Source of the DNA: an uncultured bacterium | Lineage (GTDB): Bacteria > Armatimonadota > Abditibacteriia > Abditibacteriales > Abditibacteriaceae | NCBI GenBank assembly: GCA_963843795.1 | Contig: CAWJLW010000006.1 | Span: 2,490,375 to 2,554,374, forward strand | DNA: 64,000 bases | Direction of reading: 5' to 3' | In this document: one piece after another, positions 56,849 through 58,504 of the stretch | Position numbering within the stretch: the first letter of the stretch is position 1 | Layout of the letters: the number at the start of each line of letters is the position of its first letter | Position numbers and translations under genes: made by a program | The notes under the pieces: generated by a model | Told to the model about the DNA's origin: nothing | What the model saw: only the letters and a program-made list of their open reading frames with translations | The model's database searches: none

Positions 56849-58504
56849 ATGAGCACGACCGACGAAGCCGCCGCGCTTTATCTCAATGAACAACGCCAAT
56901 TTCGCCGACTCGAAGCCTCACTTCCCGTCTGGATTGGGCGCGAAAGTGATTTGCGTGAACAAAGCTCCGGTGGCGTTTCGCCATGGTCGCTGGGCTACAC
57001 GCGCGACCTATCGATGGGCGGCGCGAAAATTATCGTCCCACCGGGTGAAGAACCCAAATGGATCGCCACTGCGCGTGATGGTTCGTTGTGCCTGTTGCGT
57101 TTTGATGTCGATGAAGATGGTAACGCCGACGACGAATATATCGAAGCGCGCGTGCGCCACGCCGCGCACGACCGCCAAAACGGCACGTTCTGGCTCGGCG
57201 TTGAATACGACGACGGCGCGCAGGGTGTCAAGGCCAGCGCGCTGCGGGCCGGTTTGCGTTCGCTGCATCGCCGCCGCCGCTGGCAAGCTGCCTTTGTATT
57301 GGCGGTTGTTCTCATCGGCCTTTCGGCTTGGTTCATCAATTCACAGCGCAGCGAACTGGCGCAGCAACAAGCCCTAGTTGCCACAGCGCAAAAGAAGCGT
57401 GACGACTTGAGCAAACAATTATCGCGCCTGAGCCGCGTCGGTCTGGTTGGAACGCGCGCTCAAGGCGTAGCCATTGCGTCGCAGGAACGCGAGACGCGCG
57501 AAAAACTGGCGGCCTTGAACAAAAATATCGCGCGCTATACCGATGAAAAAAATCAGGCTCAGGGCGAAGAAGCACGCCGCCAGCAATTGGAAGACGACGG
57601 CCTGCAAGTTTCCGCTGCACCCGTGACCGGAGCGAATGTGGAAATGGGAATCGCGCTGCCTTACGGATACGCATGGCCGGTCGTGGTCGATGATTTGGAA
57701 CAAGCGCTGGGTCGTCGCGTGCCCTTAGTAGTCGTCTTTCGAGACTTTAAAGCGCCTTTTCCCATAGGCGATGCACGCGAGGCGCGCGTTTATGCGAAAA
57801 CGTTGCAAATCACCTGGGAGCCGTGGCATTTTTCCAACCCCAATGCCATTAAAATGCAAGATATAATTAATGGCAAGCACGACAAATACATCGACAGTTG
57901 GGCGCAGGCTTCCAAAAGTTTCGGTGCCGAAATTTGGATTCGTTTCGCTCATGAATTCAACGGCAACTGGTATCCCTGGAGCGTGAGCGCCAATGAGCGC
58001 GATCCGCAGATTTATATCAAAGCCTTTCGTCATGTACGCGACCGATTTAGTAAAGCCGGTGCGTTTAATGTGCGCTGGATTTGGTGTTTAAACGCCGAAT
58101 CGGTGCCCGATGCCACCTGGAATGATCCGCTGCGCGCTTATCCCGGTGATGATTACGTCGATATGATTTCGATTGACGGCTACAATTTCGGCACTGCGGT
58201 TTCGGGTTCGCGTTGGCAAAGTTTCAATCAAATTTTCAACGAACCGTATGCCCGTGTGAGCCGCAAGTTTCCCAACAAGCCGTTGATGATCGGCGAAATC
58301 GGTTGCGCGACCGTCGGCGGCGATAAAGTGTCATGGATGCGCGATATGGATAAGCAACTGCGCACGAAATTCACGCGCGTGCAAAGCGTGGTCTGGTTTG
58401 AGGCCGCCAAAGAAGCCGATTGGCGCATGCTCAGTTCACCCCAATCCGCCTCGTGGAGTCGCGAAATGTGGACGCAGCGCTATTATCGGCGCGGCGAATC
58501 ATAA
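56849..58504 (+). CDS. PilZ domain - TM - GH26-like glycoside hydrolase fusion protein
   Basis: N-terminal PilZ motifs (RQFRR, DLSMGGAKI), one TM helix, coiled coil, then GH26 signature WIRFAHEFNGNWYPW and nucleophile MIGEIGC. Confidence 0.7.
   Translation: MSTTDEAAALYLNEQRQFRRLEASLPVWIGRESDLREQSSGGVSPWSLGYTRDLSMGGAKIIVPPGEEPKWIATARDGSLCLLRFDVDEDGNADDEYIEARVRHAAHDRQNGTFWLGVEYDDGAQGVKASALRAGLRSLHRRRRWQAAFVLAVVLIGLSAWFINSQRSELAQQQALVATAQKKRDDLSKQLSRLSRVGLVGTRAQGVAIASQERETREKLAALNKNIARYTDEKNQAQGEEARRQQLEDDGLQVSAAPVTGANVEMGIALPYGYAWPVVVDDLEQALGRRVPLVVVFRDFKAPFPIGDAREARVYAKTLQITWEPWHFSNPNAIKMQDIINGKHDKYIDSWAQASKSFGAEIWIRFAHEFNGNWYPWSVSANERDPQIYIKAFRHVRDRFSKAGAFNVRWIWCLNAESVPDATWNDPLRAYPGDDYVDMISIDGYNFGTAVSGSRWQSFNQIFNEPYARVSRKFPNKPLMIGEIGCATVGGDKVSWMRDMDKQLRTKFTRVQSVVWFEAAKEADWRMLSSPQSASWSREMWTQRYYRRGES

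Follow-up and report, generated by a model that had tools for sequence, protein, structure and literature searches.

Can a glycoside hydrolase that lies outside the cytoplasmic membrane be controlled by cyclic di-GMP (c-di-GMP) through a receptor domain in the same polypeptide? This question is raised by a gene in a stretch of 64,000 nt of Abditibacteriaceae DNA (contig CAWJLW010000006.1; hereafter the window, to whose positions all coordinates refer). The gene encodes a protein of 551 residues, in which an N-terminal PilZ domain is joined through one transmembrane helix and a helical spacer to a C-terminal domain of glycoside hydrolase family 26 (GH26). It is known that c-di-GMP switches polysaccharide synthesis on via BcsA, Alg44, PelD and BgsA; to our knowledge, no glycoside hydrolase carries its own c-di-GMP receptor. 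The results described below demonstrated that this PilZ-GH26 architecture is real, conserved and uncharacterised, and they make direct gating of the hydrolase by c-di-GMP plausible.

Identification of the PilZ and GH26 domains

The codons of the gene were re-read from the DNA, which placed RQFRR at residues 16-20, DLSMGG at residues 53-58, E369 within HEFNGNWYPW and E483 within IGEIG. Conservation was evaluated in an alignment of 42 orthologues that are 47-89% identical to the window protein. Since R16, R20, D53, G58, E369 and E483 were invariant and S55 was conserved in at least 90% of the sequences, these motifs are more than chance matches. F18 and R19 were also conserved in at least 90%, and the second PilZ motif fits the refined [D/N]hSxxG consensus (10.1101/814665).

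The N-terminal domain is a canonical PilZ domain. A preliminary description of the gene, made from its letters, had pointed to the signatures RQFRR and DLSMGGAKI and had named failure at the PilZ profile threshold as the result that would speak against them. The whole protein scored 23.3 bits with the Pfam PilZ profile (cut-off, 22.5 bits) and the isolated domain scored 27.6 bits; together with the invariant or nearly invariant motif residues, these scores bear that assignment out. All 17 orthologous N-terminal domains compared with Pfam matched PilZ and nothing else (best E, 1.7e-9). Because the family profile gave a weak match to MotI/YpfA alone (E=1) when compared with Protein Data Bank (PDB) sequences, structure comparison was used, and it was decisive. 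An AlphaFold2 (AF2) model of the domain, with a predicted local distance difference test score (pLDDT) of 87, contained six strands and a helix starting at residue 125. The top 47 Foldseek matches in the PDB were all PilZ domains, among them MotI (5vx6; 1.7e-5), BcsA (4i86, 4hg6 and 4p00), Alg44 (4rt0), VCA0042, YcgR, MapZ, MrkH and PlzA. The domain is thus expected to bind c-di-GMP.

The C-terminal domain matched the Pfam profile Glyco_hydro_26 with 43.6 bits (cut-off, 20.2 bits) and is the best-conserved part of the protein (66%). In a phmmer search against the PDB, residues 282-539 aligned to endoglucanase H of Clostridium thermocellum, that is, to CtLic26A (2bv9; E 5.7e-57), the GH26 module of CelH, which is a beta-1,3-1,4-glucanase (EC 3.2.1.73); the other GH26 structures, which are mannanases and xylanases, were matched with E 8e-7 or worse. 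The AF2 model of the domain had eight beta/alpha units and matched GH26 structures in Foldseek, superposing on 2vi0 with a TM-score of 0.92, a root-mean-square deviation of 1.9 A and 37% identity, against a TM-score of at most 0.71 for other GH26 structures. Judging from these alignments, the domain is of the lichenase type, closer to CtLic26A than to mannanases or xylanases, and what had been described as a GH26-like hydrolase can be named more precisely. A mannanase reading was rejected, since the domain is far nearer to the lichenase than to any mannanase. By analogy with its nearest characterised relative, the enzyme may be specific for beta-1,3-1,4-glucan.

The window protein and CtLic26A are 37-38% identical over about 260 residues and have in common the catalytic Glu pair and the blocks HE.NG.WYPW, IDGYN.G, KP..I.E and WF.E.KE.DWR; CtLic26A, by contrast, is secreted, belongs to the cellulosome and is accompanied by GH5, CBM11 and dockerin modules, and it has no PilZ domain, transmembrane helix or spacer. 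In GH26 enzymes, the two catalytic Glu residues lie on strands beta4 and beta7 (PMC10470212), and the modelled placement of E369 and E483 agrees with this rule. Both residues, proposed beforehand as acid/base and nucleophile from the signatures AHEFN and IGEIG, were present in the proper alignment, where they pair with E109 and E222 of CtLic26A (numbering counted from the printed phmmer alignment) and are invariant. The proposal that PilZ, a transmembrane helix and GH26 form one polypeptide was therefore confirmed by Pfam and by orthologue conservation, as well as by structure prediction, in which both folds were recovered (AF2 and Foldseek).

Topology and the helical spacer

Residues 145-165 (WQAAFVLAVVLIGLSAWFINS) form the sole strongly hydrophobic stretch of the protein (Kyte-Doolittle, 2.07). 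The 16 residues before this helix contain six K/R, against one after it, and on the basis of this charge difference and the conserved RRRxWQ cluster the PilZ domain is predicted to lie in the cytoplasm and GH26 outside. The protein is thus predicted to be a bitopic inner-membrane protein. In the full-length AF2 model (pLDDT 80), a single unbroken helix covered residues 125-196, suggesting that the C-terminal helix of PilZ may run directly into the transmembrane helix and past it.

The spacer is kept at a length of 90-103 residues (median, 102) among the 42 orthologues at 32% identity. The preliminary description had a transmembrane helix followed by a coiled coil. The single helix stands; a canonical coiled coil was not confirmed, as the AF2 helices within residues 166-249 had low pLDDT values (45-71) and a crude heptad test against shuffled sequences was not significant (median z, 0.6; above 2 in 4 of 42 orthologues). 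The segment is therefore termed a helical spacer. The continuous helix of the model and the kept spacer length are consistent with mechanical coupling or with a defined reach of the enzyme. The features of the gene and of its surroundings are collected in Table 1.

Table 1. Positions of the PilZ-GH26 gene, its predicted domains and sites, and associated features in the window.
Feature	Position	Strand	Basis
PilZ-transmembrane helix-helical spacer-GH26 gene, 551 residues	56849..58504	+	Open reading frame (ORF) list; start and end positions common to about 90 full-length orthologues
PilZ domain, residues 15-124, six beta-strands, predicted cytoplasmic	56891..57220	+	Pfam PF07238; AF2, pLDDT 87; Foldseek
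RxxxR c-di-GMP-binding motif, R16-Q-F-R-R20 (predicted site)	56894..56908	+	R16 and R20 invariant in 42 orthologues
[D/N]hSxxG c-di-GMP-binding motif, D53-L-S-M-G-G58 (predicted site)	57005..57022	+	D53 and G58 invariant; S55 and G57 conserved in at least 90%
PilZ C-terminal alpha-helix and juxtamembrane Arg cluster (...LHRRRR), residues 125-144	57221..57280	+	AF2; R142 invariant; R143, W145 and Q146 conserved in at least 90%
Single transmembrane helix, residues 145-165, predicted N-in/C-out	57281..57343	+	Hydropathy 2.07; flanking charge
Predicted extracytoplasmic helical spacer, residues 166-268	57344..57652	+	Length conserved, sequence not; AF2 helices with low pLDDT
GH26 (beta/alpha)8 catalytic domain, lichenase type, residues 269-551	57653..58501	+	phmmer; Foldseek; Pfam PF02156
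E369, predicted catalytic acid/base (HEFNGNWYPW)	57953..57955	+	Aligns with E109 of CtLic26A; invariant; just after beta4 in the model
E483, predicted catalytic nucleophile (IGEIG)	58295..58297	+	Aligns with E222 of CtLic26A; invariant; on beta7 in the model
Candidate partner, soluble STAS-like + GHKL ATPase (HATPase_c)	46137..47204	-	Orthologues directly downstream of PilZ-GH26 elsewhere
Palindromic hairpin with A-run and T-run, between the convergent stops of PilZ-GH26 and a GlcD-like gene	58515..58549	.	Terminator-like match at 58524-58539

Distribution of the fusion

About 90 full-length orthologues (48-100% identity) were found in public data. Those with a name all belong to Abditibacteriota/Abditibacteriaceae or to metagenome-assembled genomes (MAGs) labelled "Armatimonadota" or "bacterium", and they include cultured Abditibacterium utsteinense (P0059) and strain IAD-21 (P0053). 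The phylum is little studied and has very few cultured members, of which A. utsteinense was the first. One genome per species was scanned for 185,579 species and the best 80 loci were kept; among these loci, full-length matches occurred in Abditibacteriota genomes only (L007-L019), and those of Spirochaetota, Saganbacteria, Actinomycetota, Myxococcota and others matched only from about residue 250 on. A full hidden Markov model scan with the PilZ profile returned just 27 proteins at E <=1e-3 from 1.84 billion representatives, which shows how few sequence neighbours this PilZ subfamily has; the best 16 were all of the PilZ-GH26 family, and a word-indexed search with the same profile returned only fragments and split genes of that family. 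The fusion is specific to this lineage, in which it is old and stable. Its members are annotated in public data only as "PilZ domain-containing protein", "endoglucanase H" or "glycosyl hydrolase".

Several MAG copies were split into two or three ORFs or frameshifted within GH26 (L019:9842-12824, P0012+P0127, P0094+P0129 and P0092), and these may be assembly errors or pseudogenes. MAG SMAG_U3413 contained two distinct full-length PilZ-GH26 genes (L014 and L016; 48% and 53% identical to the query), which could be a paralogue pair or come from a mixed bin.

Proposed model of a c-di-GMP-controlled glucanase and its genomic context

We tentatively favour, at somewhat less than an even chance, the hypothesis that the protein is a c-di-GMP-binding, membrane-anchored endo-beta-glucanase which remodels a self-made glucan of the envelope or matrix and whose action is controlled by nucleotide occupancy. 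The cytoplasmic PilZ domain would bind c-di-GMP, and its C-terminal helix would pass into the transmembrane helix and then into the spacer of about 100 residues. On the outer side of the cytoplasmic membrane, this spacer would hold a catalytically active GH26 domain, a retaining endo-beta-glucanase of the CtLic26A/lichenase type, which would remodel or trim a beta-glucan that the cell itself makes for its envelope or matrix. Occupancy of PilZ by c-di-GMP would set the time or the place of hydrolysis, most likely through an altered oligomeric state or orientation of the PilZ-transmembrane-stalk unit or through docking of a partner, for which a genetically linked GHKL ATPase and an exopolysaccharide (EPS) export machine are candidates.

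This hypothesis is supported by the intact PilZ motifs, which are under purifying selection, by the retained Glu pair and fold of GH26, and by the predicted N-in topology with its conserved Arg cluster in a fusion that is intact in about 90 orthologues. It also draws support from an orthologue (L090) that is co-directional with EPS genes, as described below, and from two published observations: PilZ domains within fusion proteins keep c-di-GMP binding (10.1101/814665), and a GH26 gene has been reported inside an EPS cluster in Actinoplanes (PMC13390465).

Gene neighbourhoods were compared in about 17 genome contexts; for the window protein itself, a look-up of contexts yielded a contig of 2.6 kb only. 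In the commonest arrangement, PilZ-GH26 is divergent from a block that consists of a gene for an unknown protein of 897-1023 residues, tatC and a MutY-like gene, and a gene of about 310-335 codons comes next downstream in the same orientation. In IAD-21 and relatives, a Mem_trans gene lies upstream of PilZ-GH26, and in a third arrangement an ABC ATPase gene lies upstream and the downstream gene of the first arrangement, here of about 316 codons, is found at a distance of 2.5 kb. This recurrent downstream gene encodes the GHKL ATPase described below. The fourth arrangement was that of L090, in which PilZ-GH26 is followed on the same strand by Wzz/BY-kinase (Wzc-like) and Poly_export (Wza-like) genes; three GT2 glycosyltransferase genes, one GT4 gene, a methyltransferase gene and an acetyltransferase gene adjoin them. 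Judging from this gene content, the L090 neighbourhood is a Wzx/Wzy-type EPS cluster. Such embedding was seen for this one orthologue and neither in the window nor in the approximately 16 other contexts. The preliminary description had proposed a search for neighbouring EPS synthase genes; none was found in the window or beside most orthologues, and the L090 orthologue alone abuts an EPS cluster.

As listed, the MutY-like ORF of the window (55591-56856, minus strand, 421 residues, GTG start) overlaps the start of PilZ-GH26 by 8 nt. Its orthologues have 366-378 residues, so the true start is probably a Met at nt 56745, which would leave a divergent intergenic region of 103 bp before PilZ-GH26.

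Several observations weigh against the proposed control of a self-directed glucanase. No glucan synthase (GT2) gene was found within 10 kb of PilZ-GH26 in the approximately 17 contexts or anywhere in the window, small GT2 genes being present in L090 only. Neither a GGDEF/EAL gene nor a c-di-GMP riboswitch was found in the window, in which no Rfam family reached threshold. The nearest GH26 relatives that have no PilZ domain lie beside LacI regulators in 34 of 67 loci, beside GH16 genes in 10 and beside sugar ABC transporters in 6-7, and these catabolic loci favour an ancestry in nutrient harvesting. The non-significant heptad test of the spacer belongs here too, and we know of no characterised precedent for allosteric signalling from PilZ through a single transmembrane helix.

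Alternative explanations

The PilZ domain may act on something other than the attached enzyme. In an arrangement like that of Alg44, c-di-GMP-bound PilZ would activate or recruit a separate machine, such as a synthase, a Wzc/Wza export system or the GHKL ATPase, and the tethered GH26 domain would be an ungated, constitutive trimmer of the BcsZ/PslG type. The topology matches that of Alg44, whose PilZ domain was among the fold matches, and the position of the L090 orthologue beside EPS genes would suit this explanation as well. The C-terminal helix of PilZ domains is a known protein-interaction element (10.1101/814665), and a partner for it may be encoded nearby. Orthologues (53-64% identity) of a soluble STAS-like/GHKL ATPase of the window lie directly downstream of PilZ-GH26 on the same strand in nine genomes (for example, L005:11770-12759, L012:11691-12623 and L088:14156-15106) and 2.5 kb downstream in a tenth. 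The downstream family matched HATPase_c in 10 of 10 members, with weak matches to STAS_2 and to HATPase_c_2 in 3 of 10 each; searches of PDB and NCBIfam with the linked ATPase returned nothing beyond HATPase_c, and no recognisable phospho-acceptor or output domain.

In the window, however, the ATPase gene lies 9.6 kb from PilZ-GH26 on the opposite strand. If the segment that runs from the SGL gene (47346) to PilZ-GH26 (58504) is inverted, the window and L005 have the same gene order; this inversion leaves PilZ-GH26 apart from the ATPase gene that normally lies downstream of it and sets GlcD, RuvC and HtrA genes on the other side. The two genes are thus linked in evolution and not obligatorily co-transcribed. 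The ATPase may be a partner of the PilZ domain in the cytoplasm. This separation, the absence of an HlyD/MFP domain and the lack of a nearby GT2 synthase gene in most genomes speak against an adaptor of the Alg44 kind, which is possible and, in our estimation, fairly unlikely.

Somewhat less probable still is a role in nutrient acquisition, in which a membrane-anchored lichenase would digest exogenous mixed-linkage beta-glucans or oligosaccharides from lichens, algae, fungi or plants, and PilZ would tie its activity or placement to a sessile life with high c-di-GMP. The catabolic contexts of the nearest relatives described above point in this direction, as do the degradative, cellulosomal nature of CtLic26A, the presence of other glycosidases (GH43 and DUF4832) in the window and the reported occurrence of Abditibacteriota in Antarctic soils, on bark and on building surfaces. 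Yet no sugar transporter or LacI regulator gene adjoins PilZ-GH26 in the approximately 17 Abditibacteriota contexts, and anchoring in the inner membrane is ill-suited to reach polymers beyond the outer membrane.

It is very improbable that PilZ is a non-binding structural or anchoring module and the protein simply a membrane-anchored glucanase: the marginal whole-protein Pfam score, the profile match to MotI at no better than E=1 and the existence of PilZ proteins that fail to bind c-di-GMP (10.1101/814665) would allow it, but known non-binders have disrupted motifs, whereas PilZ domains in fusions keep them (10.1101/814665), and here both motifs are intact and conserved and the fold matches c-di-GMP-bound PilZ structures. 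Slightest of all is the speculative chance that GH26 binds or cleaves extracytoplasmic glucan and relays this state inward through the transmembrane helix, PilZ and the GHKL ATPase being the receivers and c-di-GMP a further input. Such a sensor would suit the continuous predicted helix across the membrane and the conserved proximity of a gene for a soluble STAS-like/GHKL ATPase, but not the invariance of both catalytic residues, expected of a working enzyme and not of a sensor that has lost catalysis, nor an ATPase with no recognisable phospho-acceptor or output domain.

Comparison with known systems

Alg44, the alginate co-polymerase of Pseudomonas aeruginosa, resembles the window protein in having an N-terminal PilZ domain with both motifs, a single transmembrane helix and an extracytoplasmic C-terminal domain. 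Unlike the GH26 domain of the window protein, which has no HlyD/MFP match, the periplasmic part of Alg44 is HlyD/MFP-like and not an enzyme; the genes for Alg44 and for Alg8, the GT2 protein with which it works, both belong to the alginate operon, whereas the window gene lies outside any synthase operon.

Periplasmic endo-glycanases that act on a self-made polymer in c-di-GMP-switched EPS pathways are known, namely BcsZ (GH8), PslG (GH39) and PelA. There, c-di-GMP is bound by a separate protein (BcsA PilZ, PelD or FleQ) and the hydrolase gene is inside the EPS operon. The window protein differs in that receptor and hydrolase are one polypeptide, usually encoded outside an EPS operon; its role is possibly the same, and PslG was among the distant Foldseek fold matches of the GH26 domain. 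LapD is a cytoplasmic c-di-GMP receptor that controls a periplasmic event from the inside out through a membrane-spanning protein. It has degenerate EAL/GGDEF domains, HAMP and two transmembrane helices and sequesters a protease, with neither a PilZ domain nor a catalytic output domain. If gating of the hydrolase is true, the window protein would be like LapD in concept and different in its domains.

A second group of proteins, uncharacterised, is alike in order of parts, predicted topology and conserved PilZ motifs. P0153 (649 residues; weak PilZ-profile match) combines a PilZ domain, one transmembrane helix and a long coil with an alpha/alpha-toroid domain at its C-terminus, and its family has at least 439 homologues of 620-710 residues in Omnitrophota, Aureabacteria and Ratteibacteria. 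The PilZ motifs of the family are conserved as R13/R17 (RxxxR) and N-V-S-x-G-G; of 29 members, 28 matched the PilZ profile and 8 matched Glyco_hydro_76 (best E, 5.4e-6), the C-terminal matches being otherwise to generic alpha/alpha-toroids, and the linker matched coiled-coil proteins. The family differs from PilZ-GH26 in its GH76-like (alpha/alpha)6 C-terminal fold. When the two families were compared with hhalign, the PilZ domains alone aligned (probability 97%, E 3e-11) and the transmembrane helix and linker did not, so the two types of fusion may be independent. A shared PilZ-transmembrane-linker module was thus not shown. One member is encoded at L087:10001-11938, and in one context the gene of the family lies among Asn-synthase, carbamoyltransferase, methyltransferase and epimerase genes.

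At least 439 proteins repeat the layout of PilZ, transmembrane helix, coil and glycosidase-like domain with a different C-terminal fold. This recurrence argues that the layout is functional and not accidental, and it suggests that the joining of PilZ to a glycosidase across the membrane is a general design principle. A broader idea, which we regard as doubtful, is that the GH26 proteins of Abditibacteriota and the GH76-like proteins of Omnitrophota and relatives together constitute a class of inside-out c-di-GMP effectors, each made of one polypeptide, that has gone unrecognised; in it, nucleotide binding in the cytoplasm would switch polysaccharide hydrolysis outside through a single helix. 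By means of such proteins, c-di-GMP would act on the degradation or remodelling of the matrix directly and at the post-translational level.

The literature searched contained no description of PilZ fused with GH26 or GH76, and a review of PilZ proteins lists no glycoside-hydrolase fusion (10.1101/814665), so the remark in the preliminary description that such a device would be unusual was justified. If PilZ controls the outer enzyme, the protein would be the first direct link from c-di-GMP to matrix hydrolysis and a minimal model for signalling through one transmembrane helix. Even if PilZ only recruits partners, the protein would mark an uncharted c-di-GMP-dependent envelope or EPS process in Abditibacteriota. 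The soluble PilZ and GH26 domains are small and easy to test.

Other features of the window

The hairpin downstream of PilZ-GH26 (Table 1) is probably a bidirectional terminator built on a genome-wide repeat, judging from its sequence. The core of the repeat, the 12-mer palindrome GCAAGTACTTGC (usually CTGCAAGTACTTGCAG), was strongly over-represented, with 38 exact sites in the window (including 3446, 8928, 16944, 20152, 37214, 47218, 55569, 56784, 58526 and 61713); 28 of these lie outside long ORFs, though ORFs cover about 85% of the window. A 15-mer with at most two mismatches gave 84 strand-matches in the window against 0.13 expected. In many copies the palindrome is the centre of a longer hairpin whose outer stem varies and which is flanked by an A-run and a T-run, and copies are present at both inferred inversion junctions (47218 and 58526) and just upstream of the PilZ-GH26 start. 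The palindrome was not found in other Abditibacteriota loci that total about 300 kb. It resembles an element confined to one species and embedded in terminators, either uptake-sequence-like or similar to repetitive extragenic palindromes (REP-like).

The protein of 1023 residues encoded at 51182-54253 (minus strand), whose gene adjoins tatC (54257-55471), has an N-terminal signal-like segment with SRLRRS and only sub-threshold matches to GH42 and GH42M, and it may be a Tat-exported, glycosidase-like protein. In 6-8 genomes, PilZ-GH26 is preceded by the conserved block of this gene, tatC and the MutY-like gene. Further genes of the window that relate to the envelope or to carbohydrates encode a secreted protein of 587 residues with a faint pectate-lyase-like start (49379-51142, minus strand), a patatin+DUF3376 protein of 1265 residues (8967-12764, minus strand), a GH43 protein (3482-4573, minus strand) and a DUF4832 protein (15-1286, plus strand).

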